DNA of 10,219 nucleotides from a virus. A program made the position numbers and the translations under genes. This document shows, in pieces, positions 4,074-9,797 of this stretch; positions within the stretch are counted from its first letter, which is position 1; every line of letters starts with the position of its first letter. The stretch lies in the UHGV virus genome UHGV-0275486; one strand, written 5' to 3'. The notes below the pieces were generated by a model. That model had not been told where the DNA came from. It made no database searches and worked only from the letters and a program-made list of their open reading frames with translations.

Positions 4074-4607
4074 ATGAACGCAAAAATCAGATACGGCCTG
4101 TCGGCTGCCGTTCTGGCACTGATTGCCGTCGGTGCGCCTGCGCCTGATATTCTCGACCAGTTTCTGGATGAAAAAGAAGGTAACCACACAACGGCATACC
4201 GCGATGGTTCCGGTATATGGACCATCTGTCGTGGTGCCACAATGGTGGATGGTAAGCCCGTCATACCGGGAATGAGGCTGTCGAAGGAAAAATGCGACCA
4301 GGTTAACGCTATTGAACGTGATAAGGCGCTGGCATGGGTGGAGCGCAATATTAAAGTACCACTGACCGAACCACAGAAAGCGGGTATAGCGTCATTTTGT
4401 CCCTATAACATTGGCCCCGGTAAGTGTTTCCCGTCGACGTTTTATAAGCGGCTGAATGCCGGTGATCGTAAGGGTGCATGCGAGGCGATTCGCTGGTGGA
4501 TAAAAGATGGTGGGCGCGATTGCCGCATACGTTCAAATAACTGCTATGGACAGGTTATTCGTCGTGACCAGGAAAGCGCATTAGCCTGTTGGGGGATAGA
4601 TCAGTGA
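4074..4607 (+). CDS. R: SAR endolysin (lysozyme with N-terminal signal-anchor-release domain)
   Basis: 177 aa. The N-terminus ([17 protein letters not shown]) is a weakly hydrophobic Gly/Ala-rich segment typical of SAR domains. It is followed by the lysozyme catalytic spacing E-x8-D-x5-T ([16 protein letters not shown]). A SAR endolysin is the expected partner of a pinholin. Confidence 0.9.
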
Positions 4608-5068
4608 GCAGAGTCGCCGCGATTATTTATGCTCTGGTTATCTGCATCATCGTCTGCCTGTCATGGGCTGTTAATCATTACCGTGATAACGCCACCGCCT
4701 ACAAAGAGCAGCGCGACAAAAATGCCAGAGAACTGAAGCTGGCGAACGCGGCAATTACTGACATGCAGATGCGTCAGCGTGATGTTGCTGCGCTCGATGC
4801 AAAATACACGAAGGAGTTAGCTGATGCGAAAGCTGAAAATGATGCTCTGCGTGATGATGTTGCCGCTGGTCGTCGTCGGTTGCACATCAAAGCAGTCTGT
4901 CAGTCAGTGCGTGAAGCCACCACCGCCTCCGGCGTGGATAATGCAGCCTCCCCCCGACTGGCAGACACCGCTGAACGGGATTATTTCACCCTCCGGGAAC
5001 GACTGGTAATGATGCAGGCCCAACTTGAAGGTGCTCAGCAATACATAACCGAACAGTGTTTAAAGTAA
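4604..5068 (+). CDS. Rz: i-spanin Rz
   Basis: GTG start at 4604 overlapping the endolysin stop (GTGA). The N-terminus ([29 protein letters not shown]) is a transmembrane segment, followed by a coiled-coil region. Close to lambda Rz as recalled. The ORF track's TTG at 4589 is an upstream in-frame alternative. Confidence 0.9.
4824..5009 (+). CDS. Rz1: o-spanin Rz1 (lipoprotein embedded in the +1 frame of Rz)
   Basis: 61 aa ([24 protein letters not shown]...[15 protein letters not shown]) with a lipobox ending in Cys and a proline-rich body. AAGGAG lies 7 nt upstream of the ATG. Lies wholly within Rz, as in lambda. Confidence 0.85.
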
Positions 5069-5205
5069 AATCTTAACTACAATATGATTCATTTTGATGA
5101 TTGTTTCATAAGGAACAGTGAAGTAAGATCTAAGAGGAGTTAAATTTTATACAGTATAATCATAATATTGCAGCAAGGTGGTTATAATTGAAAGAATATT
5201 TAGAT

Positions 5206-6663
5206 ATGAATACATCTCATGTAAGAGTTGTTACTCATATGTGTGGGTTCCTGGTTTGGCTCTATAGTCTTTCAATGTTGCCACCAATGGTTGTAGCATT
5301 GTTTTATAAAGAAAAAAGCCTGTTCGTTTTCTTTATAACTTTCGTTATATTTTTTTGCATTGGTGGCGGAGCGTGGTATACAACTAAGAAATCTGGCATT
5401 CAATTACGTACCCGTGATGGGTTTATTATAATTGTAATGTTTTGGATTTTGTTTTCTGTTATTAGTGCATTCCCTTTATGGATTGACTCAGAACTTAATT
5501 TAACGTTCATTGATGCTCTGTTTGAAGGGGTTTCTGGAATAACAACAACAGGAGCAACTGTAATTGATGATGTTAGTTCATTACCTCGGGCATATTTGTA
5601 CTATCGGTCACAGTTAAATTTTATAGGTGGTTTAGGAGTTATTGTTCTGGCGGTTGCTGTATTGCCATTATTGGGTATTGGTGGTGCAAAGCTTTATCAG
5701 TCAGAAATGCCGGGGCCATTTAAGGATGACAAACTCACTCCCCGCCTGGCCGATACGTCACGGACACTGTGGATAACTTATTCTTTATTAGGTATTGCTT
5801 GTATTGTCTGTTATAGACTTGCAGGAATGCCTTTGTTTGATGCTATTTGTCACGGGATTTCCACAGTTTCGCTTGGTGGTTTCTCAACTCATAGCGAGAG
5901 TATCGGATATTTTAATAACTATTTGGTTGAGCTGGTGGCTGGTTCTTTTTCCCTGCTATCGGCTTTCAACTTCACTCTTTGGTATATTGCTATTAGCAGG
6001 AAAACGATAAAACCTTTAATCAGAGATATTGAACTTCGTTTCTTTCTGTTAATAGCCTTAGGGGTGATCATTGTTACCTCTTTCCAGGTCTGGCATATAG
6101 GTATGTATGACTTGCATGGAAGTTTTATTCATTCGTTTTTTCTTGCCAGCTCCATGCTCACTGATAATGGTTTAGCTACGCAGGATTATGCAAACTGGCC
6201 CACGCACACGATAGTGTTTTTGCTGTCGTCAAGTTTCTTTGGGGGATGTATAGGTTCAACTTGTGGTGGAATTAAGTCACTTCGATTTCTTATACTTTTC
6301 AAACAAAGCAAACACGAGATAAATCAGCTTTCTCATCCCAGAGCGTTGTTGAGTGTAAATGTAGGAGGGAAGATAGTTACAGATCGTGTAATGAGGTCTG
6401 TATGGAGTTTCTTTTTTCTTTATACTCTCTTCACGGTGTTTTTTATACTGGTGTTAAATGGTATGGGATATGATTTTCTTACATCATTTGCAACAGTGGC
6501 TGCATGTATTAATAATATGGGATTAGGTTTTGGGGCTACTGCATCGTCATTCGGAGTGCTTAATGACATTGCAAAATATTTAATGTGCATAGCTATGATT
6601 CTTGGTCGCCTTGAAATTTATCCTGTTATTATATTGTTTTCAGGTTTTTTTTGGCGCTCCTAA
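5206..6663 (+). CDS. trkG: Trk-system potassium uptake protein TrkG (TrkH/TrkG family membrane protein)
   Basis: 485 aa from ATG 5206 (491 aa from TTG 5188). Multiple transmembrane segments and the conserved TrkH-family motifs (GITTTGATV, LYQSEMPGP, GGCIGSTCGGIK). Markedly AT-rich compared with its flanks. Matches the trkG gene of the K-12 Rac prophage as recalled, in the same position after Rz/Rz1. Confidence 0.9.
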   Translation: MNTSHVRVVTHMCGFLVWLYSLSMLPPMVVALFYKEKSLFVFFITFVIFFCIGGGAWYTTKKSGIQLRTRDGFIIIVMFWILFSVISAFPLWIDSELNLTFIDALFEGVSGITTTGATVIDDVSSLPRAYLYYRSQLNFIGGLGVIVLAVAVLPLLGIGGAKLYQSEMPGPFKDDKLTPRLADTSRTLWITYSLLGIACIVCYRLAGMPLFDAICHGISTVSLGGFSTHSESIGYFNNYLVELVAGSFSLLSAFNFTLWYIAISRKTIKPLIRDIELRFFLLIALGVIIVTSFQVWHIGMYDLHGSFIHSFFLASSMLTDNGLATQDYANWPTHTIVFLLSSSFFGGCIGSTCGGIKSLRFLILFKQSKHEINQLSHPRALLSVNVGGKIVTDRVMRSVWSFFFLYTLFTVFFILVLNGMGYDFLTSFATVAACINNMGLGFGATASSFGVLNDIAKYLMCIAMILGRLEIYPVIILFSGFFWRS

Positions 6664-6749
6664 TATATGGCTGATTTATAATTGTGAGTTTAATATTATA
6701 TTGACTCACTCATTGATCCAATACCTAACTTTACCAGCAACACCTCCGC

Positions 6750-6784
6750 CCCCAGTAGCACTGGCTGCTGGGGTGCGTTTTATT
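6750..6784 (+). terminator. possible terminator downstream of trkG
   Basis: CCCCAG (6750-6755) / CTGGGG (6768-6773) stem with a 12-nt loop, followed by TGCGTTTTATT. The T-run is interrupted and the loop is long, so this is a weak call. Confidence 0.3.
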
Positions 6785-6800
6785 CATAAAGCAAGGCTGT

Positions 6801-7592
6801 ATGAGCGAGAAATTAAAGATAGTCTATCGCCCATTACAAGAATTGTCACCGTATGCGCACAACGCCAGGACGCACAGTACTGAGCAGGTGGCACAACTGG
6901 TAGAAAGTATTAAGCAATTCGGCTGGACTAATCCGGTGCTGATTGACGAAAAGGGCGAAATTATTGCGGGTTACGGTCGTGTTATGGCGGCTGAAATGCT
7001 CAAAATGGATTCTGTTCCGGTCATTGTTCTGTCTGGCCTGACGGATGAGCAGAAAAAGGCGTACCGCCTGGCAGATAATCGCCTGCCGATGAATGCTGGC
7101 TGGGATGAAGATCTGTTGCGGATGGAGCTGTCGGACCTAATCAATGCTGATTTTGATGTCTCCCTGACAGGCTTCATCCCGACAGAAATTGATGAACTGT
7201 TGACGGATGTTTTGCCCGGTACAGGAAATGAGGAGGAGCCGTATACGACGAAAATTGATACGCCTGTTTATGAGCCGTCGGGCGGTAAACCGGATATCAG
7301 TGAACTGTACGACGATACGAAAACTCAGGAGCTGATCAGCCGGATACGTTCGGCGTCCCTTGAGCCTGATATTGAGAAATTCCTCCTGTGTGCGGCAGAA
7401 CGTCACACGGTGTTTAATTTCAGTAGAATTGCGGACTATTACGCTCACGCCCCCTCTGAAATTCAGTGTTTTTTCGAGGAGTCGGCGCTGGTGATCATTG
7501 ATTATCAGCAGGCTATTGAAAATGGATTTGTCCGGATGACGCAGCGCATGGTGGAGATCATGCATGGTGGTGAGGAGGAGGAATATGCGTGA
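6801..7592 (+). CDS. ParB/Srx-like N-terminal domain protein with acidic C-terminal region
   Basis: 263 aa. The N-terminus (PLQELSPYAHNARTHSTEQVAQLVESIKQFGWTNPVLIDEKGEIIAGYGRVMAA) has the ParB-like nuclease-domain pattern, including the Gly-x-x-Arg core. The C-terminal half is acidic and ends in EEEEYA. AAGG precedes the ATG. Confidence 0.75.
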   Translation: MSEKLKIVYRPLQELSPYAHNARTHSTEQVAQLVESIKQFGWTNPVLIDEKGEIIAGYGRVMAAEMLKMDSVPVIVLSGLTDEQKKAYRLADNRLPMNAGWDEDLLRMELSDLINADFDVSLTGFIPTEIDELLTDVLPGTGNEEEPYTTKIDTPVYEPSGGKPDISELYDDTKTQELISRIRSASLEPDIEKFLLCAAERHTVFNFSRIADYYAHAPSEIQCFFEESALVIIDYQQAIENGFVRMTQRMVEIMHGGEEEEYA

Positions 7593-8517
7593 TGATTTTT
7601 GCGCCTTTATTCTGACTCACGGGCGACCGGACAAAGTTCTGACTTACCGGACGTTGCGTCGTGCTGGCTATACCGGGAAAATTTTTATCGTTGTTGATGA
7701 TGAAGATAAGACACGGCATCAGTACATGGCTGAATTTGGTGAACAGGTGCTGGTGTTTTCCAAAGCCGATATCGCCAGTCGTTTTGACGAAGCCGATAAT
7801 TTCTGTGACCGCCGCTCAATTTTTTACGCCCGTAATGCCTGTTTCGACCTGGCAAAACTGGTCGGGTGTAAATACTTCATTCAGCTCGATGATGATTATC
7901 ACGAGTTCCAGTTTCGGGTGGATCGCAACTATGACCAGGCCTATTTTCCGATAAGGAAACTGGATGCGATCCTTTCTGAAATGCTGGCGTACTACGAATC
8001 AATACCTGCTCTTTCCATCGCTATGTCGCAGGGCGGGGATTTTCTTGGTGACAATGGCGGCCATGCTTCGTGGGTGAAACGCAAGGCAATGAACAGCTTT
8101 ATCTGTTCGGTTGATCGACCGTTCTCATTCATGGGGCGCATTAACGAGGATGTGAATACGTACACGAATCTCGGTCGCTGTGGTGAATTGTTTATGACGA
8201 TCGGTGCTGTCCAGTTAGGGCAGAAACAGACGCAGAAAAACAGCGGCGGAATGACCGAGCTGTATCTGGATTCCGGAACCTACGTTAAAAGTTTTTACTC
8301 CGTCATGTATGCGCCGTCGTGCGTAAAAATTTCACTGATGGGTGCCAGCCATAAACGCATTCACCATCAGGTCACCTGGAACAACGCTGCAGTAAAAATC
8401 CTTCACGAAAAATACAGGAAGAAGACACCCTGCATATCAATGGGGGTGACAAATGATTCCGTATTCGAAAGTCGAGTCTCTGGCAGCGTGCCGGATGACT
8501 GCACAACAAATCGCTGA
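7585..8517 (+). CDS. hypothetical protein with GT-A (family-2 glycosyltransferase-like) motif spacing
   Basis: 310 aa from ATG 7585, which follows GAGGAGGAGGA and overlaps the ParB-like stop (ATGCGTGA). The N-terminus has a beta-strand (CAFILTHGRPD), then IFIVVDDEDK about 30 residues later and FIQLDDDY about 55 residues after that. This matches the spacing of the DxD elements in GT-A folds such as SpsA as recalled. Function is inferred from motifs only. Confidence 0.55.
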   Translation: MRDDFCAFILTHGRPDKVLTYRTLRRAGYTGKIFIVVDDEDKTRHQYMAEFGEQVLVFSKADIASRFDEADNFCDRRSIFYARNACFDLAKLVGCKYFIQLDDDYHEFQFRVDRNYDQAYFPIRKLDAILSEMLAYYESIPALSIAMSQGGDFLGDNGGHASWVKRKAMNSFICSVDRPFSFMGRINEDVNTYTNLGRCGELFMTIGAVQLGQKQTQKNSGGMTELYLDSGTYVKSFYSVMYAPSCVKISLMGASHKRIHHQVTWNNAAVKILHEKYRKKTPCISMGVTNDSVFESRVSGSVPDDCTTNR

Positions 8518-8704
8518 CGTTCTGGATGTTGATCTGAACCGACTGAAAGAAAATCGGGAAGCAATGACAGATTTTTATGCGGCCATCCGTAAGGGCAGAG
8601 CGAAAGGTGAAGCCGAGTTACGAGCGGCATTGTTTAAGCTTGCCAGAAAAGGGGATGCCTTTGCTCTGCGCGAACTACTCAGGGTGGATAAAAATCAGGA
8701 CTAA
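8453..8704 (+). CDS. small hypothetical protein upstream of the small terminase (possible DNA-binding accessory protein)
   Basis: 83-aa ORF with GGGGGTGA 4 nt upstream of the ATG. Helical, basic, protein-like composition. Overlaps the end of the preceding gene by 65 nt and stops 3 nt before the terminase gene. Confidence 0.45.
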   Translation: MIPYSKVESLAACRMTAQQIADVLDVDLNRLKENREAMTDFYAAIRKGRAKGEAELRAALFKLARKGDAFALRELLRVDKNQD

Positions 8705-8707
8705 CTG

Positions 8708-9154
8708 ATGAGCAGACCGGACTGGGGGGCGTTGCAGCAGGAGTATATTGCTGAATACACCCGCTCCGGTATATCTCCGGTGGCATGGTGTGAAGCAAGG
8801 GGACTGAATTACGCAACAGCCCGTCGTTACATCAAAAAAACTCCGAAAAATGCGCAGACAGAAATGCGCAAAACTGCGCAAAAAAGTGCGCAGAAAAAAT
8901 CTGCGCAGACTGCACAAAAGCGGAACGAAAAATCTCAGGAAAAAAAGCCAGTATTCGATGCGGGCCTGAATGAGGGCGACGCGGAGGAATTTTCGTTCTG
9001 TCCCGATGATTTCGGCATTTCTGACCAGCAGGCTAAGTTTGCGATGCTTGTTGCTCAGGGTAAAAAGCCGACAGAGGCGTACCGACTATCTGGATTTTTT
9101 CAAAGGCGAGATAGGGAAAACCCATCTGGCTCAGGAGCTGTGGACGCAGATTGA
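8708..9154 (+). pseudogene. terminase small subunit, truncated at the 3-prime end and running into unrelated sequence
   Basis: The N-terminal 130 residues look like a small terminase: a helix-turn-helix-like segment (ISPVAWCEARGLNYATARRYIKK), a K/Q/A-rich linker, and the conserved [27 protein letters not shown] motif. After about nt 9097 the frame decays into an unrelated 18-residue tail ending at TGA 9152-9154. Another frame carries tail-protein J-like sequence from about 9084. Confidence 0.6.
8851..8916 (+). repeat. cluster of TGCGCA hexamers inside the small terminase gene
   Basis: TGCGCA at 8851, 8865, 8875, 8887 and 8902, plus TGCACA at 8911, spaced 9-15 bp. The region encodes the K/Q/A-rich linker. 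Confidence 0.5.
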
Positions 9155-9797
9155 TAACGGTCAGCTTGCGCCTGACCTGGCTGAAATCAGGACATCCATT
9201 ACGGATGTCAGCAATGAAATCACACAGACCGTCAATAAGAAACTGGAAGACCAGAGTGCAGCGATCCAGCAGATACAGAAGGTTCAGGTTGATACAAATA
9301 ATAACCTGAACAGCATGTGGGCCGTGAAACTGCAGCAGATGCAGGACGGACGCCTTTATATTGCGGGTATCGGTGCCGGTATTGAGAATACGCCAGCAGG
9401 AATGCAGAGTCAGGTGCTGCTGGCGGCAGACAGGATTGCGATGATTAATCCTGCGAATGGCAACACAAAGCCGATGTTTGTTGGTCAGGGTGATCAGATA
9501 TTCATGAACGACGTGTTCCTGAAACGCCTGACGGCTCCCACCATTACCAGCGGCGGTAATCCTCCTGCATTTTCCCTTACACCGGACGGGCGACTGACGG
9601 CGAAAAATGCGGATATCAGTGGCAGTGTGAATGCGAACGCCGGGACGCTCAACAATGTCACGATAAATGAAAACTGTCGGGTTCTGGGAAAACTGTCTGC
9701 GAACCAGATTGAAGGCGATCTCGTTAAAACAGTGGGCAAAGCTTTCCCCCGGGACTCCCGTGCACCGGAGCGGTGGCCATCAGGGACCATTACCTGA
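9084..9797 (+). pseudogene. C-terminal fragment of tail-tip / host-specificity protein J homologue
   Basis: From about 9084 the frame encodes sequence ([23 protein letters not shown]...[77 protein letters not shown]...) that closely matches the C-terminal region of lambda J as recalled. There is no J N-terminus, which would be about 900 aa. The frame stops at TGA 9795-9797, before where lambda J ends. Confidence 0.6.

Follow-up and report, generated by a model that had tools for sequence, protein, structure and literature searches.

Sugar modifications of phage DNA decide attack by restriction enzymes, CRISPR, and glycosylase-based defenses. To our knowledge, all known modifications of this kind require that a hydroxymethyl-pyrimidine be made first. 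One family of relevant enzymes is TAGT (TET-associated glycosyltransferase), reportedly defined by Iyer et al. in 2013. It includes the T2/T6 enzyme (beta-glucosyl-HMC-alpha-glucosyltransferase) that glucosylates glucosyl-hmC DNA (PMC13216743). The T-even enzymes extend a glucose set on 5-hydroxymethylcytosine by a GT-B enzyme and have no ParB/CTD partner. Phage GT-A DNA glycosyltransferases and the trypanosome base-J enzyme carry an R...DDD...ED[Y/F] signature (Pyle et al., bioRxiv 10.1101/2023.12.21.572611; Cell Rep 2024). In that study, ~65% of phage glycosyltransferase contigs had no oxygenase or thymidylate-synthase neighbor, and glycosyltransferases linked to C5-methyltransferase and TET-like oxygenases were shown to be active on 5hmC from neighboring enzymes (bioRxiv 10.1101/2023.12.21.572611). 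ParB proteins enter DNA modification in 5mYOX-ParB systems, where they activate phage thymine dioxygenases on dsDNA (O'Toole et al., PNAS 2026, PMC13229309; bioRxiv 10.1101/2025.08.14.668559). Hypermodification genes of the amino-acid and kinase types accompany the ParB-dependent clade, and glycosyltransferases the ParB-independent one (PMC13229309).

The window (the whole 10,219-nt stretch of UHGV virus genome UHGV-0275486) encodes a gene pair located after trkG (5188-6663) and before a terminase small-subunit gene (8708 onward). Gene 1 (6801..7592, + strand) encodes a 263-aa acidic partner protein that is full-length YnaK. Gene 2 (7585..8517, + strand) encodes a 310-aa GT-A glycosyltransferase of the TAGT family (PF20691), named 'GREB1-related protein' in RefSeq. 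An earlier note on this DNA described an 8-nt overlap of the two genes and a gene 2 ribosome-binding site built from the Glu codons of gene 1, and both details hold. The overlap, ATGCGTGA (7585..7592, + strand), includes the gene 2 start (ATG, 7585-7587) and the gene 1 stop (TGA, 7590-7592), and translation of the two genes is coupled. Because gene 1 ends in Glu codons (GGT GAG GAG GAG GAA TAT GCG TGA, ...GEEEEYA*), the gene 2 ATG is preceded by the purine-rich, Shine-Dalgarno-like GAGGAGGAGGAA (7572..7583, + strand; direct sequence reading). A mechanical ORF list starts gene 2 at 7564; we favor 7585 because 24 aligned homologues begin at the equivalent position (MRDDFCAF...). Junctions in other phyla range from -11 to +4 nt (median gap, 3.5 nt). 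Both genes are under purifying selection, with dN/dS of 0.09-0.15 for gene 1 and 0.07-0.14 for gene 2, values taken from closer homologues because dS was saturated against distant ones.

The GT-A fold with a DxD motif that the earlier note proposed for gene 2 was supported by profile and structure comparisons. The protein matches Pfam TAGT (PF20691) over residues 8-222 (E 3.4e-35; 122.3 bits, cut-off 27.5) and PHROG 842 (6e-104). The AF2 model reaches pLDDT of ~80 or above over most of residues 1-150. The top PDB matches of this model are GT-A glycosyltransferases only, and its nearest viral structure models are TAGT-domain proteins; the TAGT profile itself retrieved no PDB sequence relative. 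The DD (D38/D39, VVDDED) and DxD (D102-D104, LDDDY) motifs are invariant or nearly so in 25 homologues. The DxD codons (GAT GAT GAT; 7888..7896, + strand), invariant in the alignment and preceded by a modeled beta-strand (residues 97-101), specify the predicted metal- and nucleotide-sugar-binding site. The invariant residues of the alignment (R14, D38/D41, D102-D104, and N187-E188-D189) resemble the signature of the phage GT-A and base-J enzymes.

The Pfam and PHROG families, GT-A fold, and DxD motif are common to gene 2 and the T2/T6 enzyme, a similarity at the profile level only: no T-even phage is among 36 tblastn hits at 1e-5. Unlike the T-even enzymes, the gene 2 subfamily has its own conserved basic C-terminal region (residues 216-285, TQ.N.GGMTELYLDSGTYVKSFY...RIHH in the alignment; 8230..8439, + strand). 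This region, with a net charge of +6.7 and low model confidence, lies nearly all past the end of the Pfam match (residue 222), and may form a lid that binds the acceptor or the partner. The last ~20-25 residues are a lineage-specific extension. The window's lambdoid prophage, unlike T-even phages, lacks an hmC pathway and genes for alpha-/beta-GT or GT-B enzymes. Human GREB1 also has a TAGT-type glycosyltransferase domain (PMC6163654; PMC7968844), but is a very large eukaryotic protein with no ParB-type partner and no viral context.

The gene 1 protein (pI ~4.4, net charge ~-26) has the ParB-like N-terminal domain and acidic tail attributed to it in the earlier note. The tail is ...HGGEEEEYA (7551..7589, + strand), and similar tails (DDEE, DHEE, GDEE) occur on partners from other phyla. 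The N-terminal module (residues 1-135; 6801..7205, + strand) has a ParB/Srx fold, identified with Pfam ParB_N, Foldseek, and PADLOC. The Pfam ParB_N match is marginal (E 2e-6; 28.2 bits, cut-off 26.3), and PHROG 620 ('ParB-like') matches at 1.5e-88. Foldseek with the AF2 model (N-domain pLDDT mostly ~75-90) retrieved Noc, ParB-CTP, PadC, KorB, sulfiredoxin, and SerK, with E of 2e-6 to 1e-4 for the partition-type proteins. The module contains a box II-like AG[H/Y]GRVMAA and an invariant ADN, and G57, R60, A63/A64, D92, and N93 are invariant among aligned enterobacterial homologues. Codon 58 is TAC (Tyr; 6972..6974, + strand), where the family alignment has CAC (His). Tyr occurs in 3 of 99 close relatives; distant relatives have His (57) or Gln (2), and K-12 has His. 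By alignment, H58Y is a rare allele at what would be the position of the CTP-hydrolysis Glu in the canonical GERR motif.

The N-domain fold, box II-like GxxRxxA, and box III-like DN are features of partition ParB/Noc/KorB. However, gene 1 lacks the HTH and lysine-rich dimerization domain of partition ParB, is strongly acidic, and resides in an integrated prophage. We rejected a partition system, given also a TIGR00180 score below cut-off (35.4 bits versus 58.45), no ParA in any pair neighborhood examined, and no parS near the genes, where a few short repeats resemble chance matches. Of 371 phage records matched by the N-module, the nearest (50-54% identity) are N-termini of phage DNA adenine methyltransferases. 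Similarly, the N-terminal ~140 residues match PHROG 498 (E 2.9e-49) and PADLOC MTase_II (1.8e-37). The same cassette is found in ParB_N-DNA methyltransferase fusions of phages and prophages, which, like the pair, are typically near packaging genes (Kaljevic et al., PNAS 2025, PMC12704722). There it is covalently joined to the methyltransferase, whereas in gene 1 it is joined to a motif plus CTD that may recruit a separately encoded glycosyltransferase. A known anti-phage defense system was also rejected, as PADLOC gave no match for the enzyme and only the methyltransferase N-terminus match for gene 1.

The motif is an invariant linker peptide, Y-T-x-K-I-x-x-P-x-Y-x-P (residues 148-159; 7242..7277, + strand), defined from alignment columns. 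Position 2 is always T or S, and the peptide lies in a stretch predicted to be disordered (pLDDT <50, residues 136-170). It is followed by a helical CTD (FLxxAAxRHxxFxYxxIAxYYAH...Q.L.E.SALVIIDxxxAIxxG; 7311..7550, + strand), identified by alignment and phmmer. A phmmer search with the CTD found 1175 representative clusters, in all of which the CTD is C-terminal. Neither a significant Pfam family (best E 0.016) nor a credible PDB relative was found for the CTD profile, and residues 148-263 contain no HTH, methyltransferase domain, or other Pfam family. About 94% of partners have the ParB domain. Stand-alone mini-partners that lack it retain the linker peptide; the part of gene 1 that strictly accompanies the enzyme is the linker motif together with the CTD, not the ParB domain.

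This organization parallels 5mYOX-ParB, in which an enzyme is encoded beside a ParB with an NBD, linker, and CTD and without a DNA-binding domain, as described for ParB176. That partner likewise has a short helical segment and an unstructured linker of ~35-50 residues, and Asn and His/Asp at the positions of MxParB Q52 and E93, which are Asn and His in the gene 1 family. Both systems are often near terminase genes. However, the enzyme there is an Fe/2-oxoglutarate dioxygenase rather than the GT-A glycosyltransferase found in 265/265 loci here. No dioxygenase occurs near the pair, and, unlike 5mYOX-ParB, the gene 1 CTD retrieves only glycosyltransferase-linked proteins (80/80). In 5mYOX-ParB the partner is needed for activity on duplex DNA; by analogy, we infer the same requirement for the enzyme described here.

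The association of the two genes is strict. The CTD gene is directly upstream of the enzyme in all 265 enzyme-seeded loci (105/105 and 160/160), and the enzyme is directly downstream of the CTD in 80 of 80 CTD-seeded loci. One protein (P0378) is a natural single 534-aa chain of TAGT, ParB_N-like, motif, and CTD. The gene pairing is not due to chance, and the conserved co-occurrence on which the earlier note made its module depend is found across several phyla. Specifically, the loci span Proteobacteria, Bacteroidota, Firmicutes, Actinobacteria, Desulfobacterota, Chlorobi, and one haloarchaeal virus, with 40-57% identity among viruses of E. coli, Bacteroides, Lactobacillus, and Haloarcula. Of 5426 complete E. 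coli genomes, 889 (16%) retain at least 80% of the pair. Records named 'Escherichia phage vB_EcoS-...' are in silico predicted prophages, not isolated phages. Tandem enzyme copies occur at two loci (L024 and L200), and a sugar epimerase/dehydratase gene is inserted behind the enzyme at two others (L193/L194). Known DNA-glycan pathways likewise have sugar epimerase/dehydratase genes and tandem enzyme copies, and sugar epimerases and second transferases are occasional neighbors of the glycosyltransferases of Pyle et al. We found no experimental study of the pair and no function for ynaK/ydaY in the literature.

The pair usually occurs just upstream of terminase genes, which belong to several unrelated families. 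It is directly upstream of them in a prophage of E. coli H10407 and in Lactobacillus phages phi jlb1 and c5 (in the latter two, right after cos), and it abuts TerL directly in Nocardia NTR1. Metagenomic phages have it in the same pre-terminase position with four terminase families. In Vibrio phage pv27, the pair is instead located amid primase, exonuclease, and helicase genes. The adjacent packaging modules are of Terminase_4/TerL_ATPase, Terminase_2/3, GpA-type, and P22-like types. None of the classical lambdoid phages in the phage collection carries the pair. With at least four terminase families beside the pair and lambdoid phages without it, we rejected an ordinary packaging component, the alternative raised in the earlier note; the pair is not a universal part of packaging. 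Within E. coli it travels with one terminase type (898 versus 889 genomes), and therefore E. coli alone could not settle this question. In the window, a terminator-like hairpin, CCCCAGTAGCACTGGCTGCTGGGG then TGCGTTTTAT (6750..6783, + strand; pattern match only), separates trkG from gene 1. It may be read through on a late transcript antiterminated by the Q-like protein encoded upstream (1474-2016). A 69-aa ORF with a terminase-small-subunit-like PHROG match (8495..8704, + strand) overlaps the end of gene 2 and precedes the terminase small-subunit gene.

Enzymes that could produce an acceptor on DNA were sought near the pair. No TET/JBP family member (PF12851) was found within 10 kb in eight distinct neighborhoods with precomputed Pfam hits. 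No annotated oxygenase, hydroxymethylase, or thymidylate-synthase-like gene was identified in the whole 31.8-kb genome of phage c5, where three unassigned ORFs have no Pfam match, or in the H10407 prophage, covered from its integrase through its tail tip. The same is true of ~21 kb of phi jlb1 that spans its early, packaging, and head regions. Thus, unlike the glycosyltransferases of Pyle et al., the pair has no 5hmC-making neighbors in these regions, and it has an obligatory CTD partner that is not described for them.

The explanation that we favor, with moderate confidence, is that the pair is a two-subunit phage nucleic-acid glycosylation module expressed with the late genes. On this view it would be an adaptor-dependent DNA glycosyltransferase, allied to the ParB-dependent DNA-modifying enzymes described recently. 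Gene 2 would be a GT-A enzyme that depends on metal and DxD and uses a nucleotide-sugar as its donor, and gene 1 would be an obligatory adaptor or activator, the linker peptide and CTD of which would bind the enzyme in a physical complex. The ParB/Srx N-domain, a putative nucleotide-binding domain, may gate the enzyme or hold it on duplex phage DNA, the putative acceptor. Replicated genomes would be sugar modified shortly ahead of packaging by the terminase encoded immediately downstream, and the added sugar would shield them from nucleases of the next host. Several observations count against DNA as the acceptor. No acceptor-making enzyme was found in the regions described above. We know of no hydroxymethyl-pyrimidines in E. 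coli DNA, and of no glycosyltransferase that acts on canonical bases. The partner, with a net charge of -22 to -27, has no recognizable DNA-binding domain; ~4-6% of partners lack the ParB domain, and a Bacteroides subclade of this domain has AGNGV, without the box II Arg. No modified DNA is reported in the literature for any pair-carrying phage.

Some of these observations would also fit an unlikely alternative, in which the sugar is transferred to protein: a terminase, virion, or host protein or, most plausibly, the partner's own Y-[T/S]-x-K-I-x-x-P-x-Y-x-P peptide. Gene 1 would in that case serve as a substrate, or as a subunit that presents one, and not as an adaptor on DNA. The lack of a hydroxymethyl-base pathway beside the pair and the acidity of a partner without a DNA-binding domain point this way. 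So does the fact that the sole unvarying partner element is a disordered peptide with T or S at position 2, which together with the CTD suffices as partner in some phages. Furthermore, GREB1, which belongs to the family, reportedly adds O-GlcNAc at a Thr/Ser site in the estrogen receptor, which itself counts against a DNA acceptor (PMC7968844), and the GT-A matches include the peptide and protein modifiers SunS, ThuS, and glycogenin. However, the invariant peptide is equally explicable as a docking strand for the enzyme, and a host-specific protein target fits poorly with 40-57% identity among viruses of such different hosts. The ParB module is common to DNA methyltransferases and resembles the dioxygenase activators (PMC13229309), and DNA is the target of those phage enzymes in the family that have been characterized (PMC13216743). 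An acceptor other than DNA or protein is quite improbable. This could be a nucleotide, a small metabolite, or RNA, for instance at a modified base of a tRNA, with the ParB/Srx domain as a nucleotide-binding or phosphotransfer subunit. The fold does include ATP-using enzymes that do not bind DNA (sulfiredoxin and serine kinase), both among the structural matches, and proteins with the ParB fold occur fused to RNA-related domains and bind a variety of NTPs (PMC12704722). Yet the recurrent neighbors of the pair are terminase or replication genes rather than RNA-related or metabolic ones, and some phages do without the ParB domain.

Annotations in databases (e.g., 'chromosome partitioning protein' or 'transcriptional regulator'), the adjacent trkG moron, and TarS/TarP-type wall teichoic acid transferases among the remote GT-A matches (bioRxiv 10.1101/2023.12.21.572611) could suggest two unrelated functions. 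In that case, gene 1 would be a partition protein, nuclease, or regulator and gene 2 a lysogenic-conversion envelope glycosyltransferase (Gtr- or TarP-like). We consider this highly improbable given the two-way perfect co-occurrence, the start/stop overlap, and the natural fusion. For gene 1, there is also no ParA gene or HTH domain, and TIGR00180 scores below cut-off. For gene 2, no membrane segment or envelope-pathway neighbor was seen, and the pair occurs in the virulent phage c5. An envelope-modifying conversion enzyme was rejected on the strict linkage to gene 1 and the range of hosts, as Gram-negative, Gram-positive, and archaeal cells share no envelope acceptor. A separate possibility, which we regard as somewhat unlikely, concerns the local copy only, not module identity: the pair in the window may be a decaying relic without present function. 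At 9082-9088 the truncated terminase small-subunit gene (8708..9088, + strand) runs straight into sequence for the C-terminal part of the tail-tip protein J. The prophage has thus lost ~18.4 kb internally, from terS to J, and is defective. This copy may serve no phage now because the prophage is defective and gene 1 has H58Y, a rare change at a nearly invariant position. K-12 Rac, for which the earlier note gave only short ynaK and ydaY annotations, shows that such a locus can be lost by deletion. The short ynaK is indeed a remnant, an 87-aa stump with homology to the window ending at nt 7054. In contrast, ydaY is not a native neighbor but a tail-region gene joined to ynaK by deletion, and K-12 lacks the enzyme gene. 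The window module is fuller, as suspected, K-12 having only a deletion remnant. Against decay, both frames in the window are unbroken and share 99-100% identity with those of prophages that appear complete, and the pair is widely retained in E. coli genomes, as noted above.

Under the favored explanation of nucleic-acid glycosylation, the pair combines an enzyme of a DNA-glycosyltransferase family with an obligatory adaptor, in viruses of both bacteria and archaea, and a base-priming enzyme was never found alongside. This leaves two options: (i) new acceptor chemistry on DNA or (ii) that many phage 'DNA glycosyltransferase' annotations act otherwise, which touches the 'solitary TAGTs' noted in 2026. 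A rather unlikely form of the first is that an enzyme held on DNA by its adaptor places sugar straight onto a canonical base or the backbone of non-hydroxymethylated DNA. If true, this would be a DNA modification chemistry not yet described, present in ~1 in 6 of the E. coli genomes sequenced and in phages that infect haloarchaea and most of the major bacterial phyla, and the 'motif plus CTD' protein would represent a general class of loader for DNA-modifying enzymes. More broadly, the pair would extend ParB-like activation of DNA-modifying enzymes from dioxygenases to glycosyltransferases.

The window spans the late region of an E. coli lambdoid prophage of the Rac type. Its genes run in the order DUF1367, YbcO nuclease, Q-like antiterminator, tRNA-Thr, tRNA-Gly, P21-type holin, DUF1327, lysozyme, Rz/Rz1, the potassium transporter gene trkG, gene 1, gene 2 and a small ORF, and end with a broken terminase small-subunit gene that runs on into the C-terminal part of tail-tip protein J. 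The tRNA genes, tRNA-Thr (TGT, 2326-2401) and tRNA-Gly (TCC, 2405-2479), lie between the Q-like antiterminator and holin genes. Positions 4590-9088 are collinear with, and 99.4% identical to, an apparently complete prophage of ETEC H10407, which carries trkG, gene 1, gene 2, the small ORF, terS and terL in that order. Beyond 9088, the window lacks ~18.4 kb of the H10407 prophage that encode terminase, head and tail proteins, and the terminase small-subunit gene is severed after ~127 codons and fused to the C-terminal part of J (8708-9797; junction 9082-9088). Because of this loss, the window prophage is defective and incapable of making particles.

Several other features of this region were identified. 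A strong terminator-like hairpin occurs between trkG and gene 1 (6750-6783), and trkG resembles a moron, with a terminator of its own, inserted into the late operon. Within the terminase small-subunit gene, AAAANTGCGCAGA is present three times (8846-8910); the repeats encode a repetitive AQK-rich stretch, and the minus strand there contains several terminator-like hairpins. The triple repeat may serve as a recognition site for packaging, or merely be a coding repeat. The 69-aa small ORF (8453/8495-8704) has no Pfam family and a terminase-small-subunit-like PHROG match, and is overlapped by the end of gene 2 by 23-65 nt, according to whether its start is placed at 8453 or 8495.

As the earlier note described, genes 1 and 2 overlap. 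Gene 1 occupies 6801-7592, gene 2 begins at an ATG at 7585 and ends at 8517, and ATGCGTGA is common to both. The final codons of gene 1 (GAG GAG GAG GAA TAT GCG TGA) encode its acidic tail, and the same purine-rich stretch serves gene 2 as ribosome-binding site. The 7585 start is matched by the N-termini of 24 aligned homologues. Purifying selection acts on both genes: compared with relatives at 79-98% identity, dN/dS is 0.07-0.15.

The ParB-like N-terminal domain proposed for the first protein (hereafter, the partner) was recovered by a Pfam ParB_N match and by fold matches over residues 1-135, where Foldseek retrieved the ParB/Srx-fold proteins Noc, ParB-CTP, PadC, KorB and sulfiredoxin. This N-module is the cassette with which phage DNA methyltransferases begin (PHROG 498, 2.9e-49; PADLOC MTase_II, 1.8e-37) and occurs in 371 phage records, the nearest being 50-54% identical. 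Disorder is predicted for residues 136-170, yet this stretch includes an invariant peptide, Y-[T/S]-x-K-I-x-x-P-x-Y-x-P (the linker peptide). Residues 171-250 form a helical C-terminal domain (CTD) with many invariant positions; profile searches assigned it to no Pfam family and gave no credible relative in the PDB. The acidic C-terminal tail is indeed present, and the whole protein has a pI of ~4.4 and a net charge of ~-26, as do partners from other phyla. At position 58, which corresponds to the hydrolysis Glu of the canonical GERR motif, the window protein has Tyr (TAC, 6972-6974) within a box II-like motif, AG[H]GR. His occupies this position in 153 of 158 sampled relatives and also in K-12 YnaK; Tyr58 occurs in 3 of 99 close relatives, and the other sampled homologues have His or, in two cases, Gln. 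Annotation of the gene is uneven: in the RefSeq record NZ_CM184352.1 (locus L001, 9001-9792), which encodes an identical protein, it appears as two features, a 'ynaK' pseudogene fragment and a 'transcriptional regulator' CDS, and other records give a single 263-aa ParB/Srx protein.

The second protein (hereafter, the enzyme) had been thought to resemble GT-A-fold transferases, and this assignment held. It matches the TET-associated glycosyltransferase family (TAGT, Pfam PF20691) at 122 bits (cut-off 27.5) and PHROG 842 at 6e-104. The AF2 model is confident over most of the N-terminal 150 residues, with strands and helices alternating as expected. Its best PDB structural matches are all GT-A enzymes (WrtF, SpsA, K4CP, SunS, glycogenin and TarS), and its best viral structural matches are other TAGT-domain proteins; a PDB sequence search found no solved structure with detectable sequence similarity. 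Invariant residues among homologues are R14, D38/D41, the DxD at D102-D104 (LDDDY) and N187-E188-D189. Residues 216-285, past the Pfam domain, are conserved and basic and were modeled with low confidence. The final 20-25 residues (within 8425-8517) are unconserved, and homologues stop near residue 287. RefSeq names for the protein vary between 'hypothetical protein' and 'GREB1-related protein'. PF20691 includes the T2/T6 enzyme that puts a second glucose on glucosyl-hydroxymethylcytosine DNA, and 'solitary' TAGTs of undefined function occur in 288 of the 753 phage genomes having such enzymes (PMC13216743).

The two genes consistently occur together. A species-level scan (one genome per species) recovered 25 loci from Escherichia, Shigella, Pantoea, Serratia, Bacteroides, Dysgonomonas, Lachnospiraceae, Faecousia, Desulfovibrionaceae, Prosthecochloris and Hyphomonadaceae, among others, and in 25/25 the CTD is encoded immediately upstream of the enzyme, with junctions mostly of -11, -8, -5, -2, +1 or +4 nt. 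The co-occurrence that the earlier note proposed to survey was likewise found in IMG/VR, where both genes are present in 80/80 enzyme-seeded and 80/80 CTD-seeded loci; Bacteroides and Lactobacillus enzyme seeds gave both genes in 160/160 further loci (median gap 3.5 nt). By these gene-neighborhood counts, the pairing is obligatory and very widespread. A CTD-only query returned 1175 representative clusters, in all of which the CTD is C-terminal, mostly in proteins of ~250-300 residues. One representative protein, P0378, combines enzyme, ParB-like domain, linker peptide and CTD in a single 534-residue chain. The ParB module is present in ~94% of partners. Since Vibrio phage pv27 and six metagenomic phages encode the peptide and CTD alone, as a stand-alone partner of 115-150 residues, peptide plus CTD is the constant partner of the enzyme and the ParB module is accessory.

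Variants of this arrangement were also observed. Another representative protein, P0266 (433 aa), has two ParB_N-like domains followed by linker peptide and CTD. Two enzyme paralogues follow one partner gene in locus L200 (9136-10861, directly in tandem) and locus L024 (3587-6137, ~0.8 kb between copies), and in loci L270 and L292 the enzyme is followed by a second 'motif plus CTD' gene; such duplications hint that more than one sugar is added stepwise. An NAD-dependent sugar epimerase/dehydratase gene lies between the glycosyltransferase and terminase small-subunit genes in L193 (3418-4380) and L194 (3009-3971), suggesting that a special nucleotide-sugar donor is supplied by the phage. In a metagenomic phage with the pair, four consecutive GT2-family glycosyltransferase genes just after the capsid gene (L031, 17837-20316; L032, 8659-11138) may serve virion or other glycosylation.

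The partner-enzyme-terminase order is kept in Lactobacillus phage phi jlb1 and in the virulent Lactobacillus phage c5, whose ORF1 and ORF2, immediately following cos, are the pair. Enzyme gene and TerL are directly adjacent in Nocardia phage NTR1, and 3 kb separate the pair from the downstream TerL in haloarchaeal virus HHTV-2. The possibility that these are ordinary packaging components was not borne out: metagenomic phages keep the order with Terminase_4/TerL_ATPase, Terminase_2/3 and GpA-type terminases. In pv27 (OR413349.1, 191 kb; locus L197, 5459-6888), whose partner is 139 aa and lacks a ParB domain, the pair sits among primase, exonuclease and helicase genes, away from the terminase. 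Given the varied terminase types and the replication-gene setting, the pair is a portable cassette and not part of one packaging machine.

The statement in the earlier note that K-12 Rac has only short ynaK/ydaY annotations here was partly right. K-12 similarity to the window stops at nt 7054, the enzyme gene is absent, and K-12 YnaK is a remnant corresponding to the first ~85 residues of gene 1, so the window does carry the fuller module; ydaY, on the other hand, is no native neighbor. In intact relatives ydaY is flanked by the genes for the tail tube and the tape measure, and a deletion brought it next to ynaK. At least part of the locus was present in 1580 of 5426 complete E. coli genomes, and 80% or more of it in 889.

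In every DNA glycosylation pathway characterised to our knowledge, the acceptor is a hydroxymethyl-pyrimidine. We identified no TET/JBP oxygenase within 10 kb in eight distinct neighborhoods with precomputed Pfam matches, and no annotated oxygenase, hydroxymethylase or thymidylate-synthase-like gene in the complete c5 genome, in the H10407 prophage from integrase to tail tip, or in the early, packaging and head regions examined of phi jlb1. By these searches, the enzyme therefore does not use a phage-made hydroxymethyl-pyrimidine. Phage GT-A enzymes do glycosylate 5hmC, and ~65% of glycosyltransferase contigs have no oxygenase or thymidylate-synthase neighbor, a group left uninterpreted (Pyle et al., 10.1101/2023.12.21.572611).

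A subclass of phage thymine dioxygenases requires a ParB homologue for activity on duplex DNA (O'Toole et al., PMC13229309; preprint 10.1101/2025.08.14.668559). That protein combines a nucleotide-binding domain with an unstructured linker and a C-terminal domain and lacks a DNA-binding domain; its canonical hydrolysis residues are replaced by Asn and His/Asp, and activation survived mutation of its nucleotide-binding residues (PMC13229309). Gene 1 shares this layout and these substitutions. In that study, glycosyltransferases accompany the clade that is independent of ParB, and pairs of ParB and a glycosyltransferase were not among the systems studied (PMC13229309). That ParB directs modification machinery is a hypothesis of Iyer et al. 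2013, as cited in PMC13229309, and a catalogue of ParB-fold fusions in phages does not mention glycosyltransferases (Kaljevic et al., PMC12704722). Literature searches found no experimental work on the gene 1-gene 2 pair.

The best-supported reading, to which we give roughly even chances, is a two-subunit module that glycosylates phage DNA ahead of packaging. The partner would act as adaptor or activator via linker peptide and CTD, and the ParB module would provide a DNA-directed, nucleotide-gated function, as for methyltransferases and dioxygenases. The main rival, which we consider unlikely, is protein glycosylation, possibly of the partner's own invariant hydroxyl-bearing peptide; it draws on the lack of a hydroxymethyl-pyrimidine pathway in the neighborhoods and genomes covered, the very acidic partner and the reported glycosylation of a protein by GREB1, a member of the same family (PMC7968844). 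The data fit poorly with unrelated functions, with a partition role and with an envelope role. Overall, the gene pair is real, conserved and functionally coupled, and is best supported as an adaptor-dependent phage nucleic-acid-modifying enzyme.
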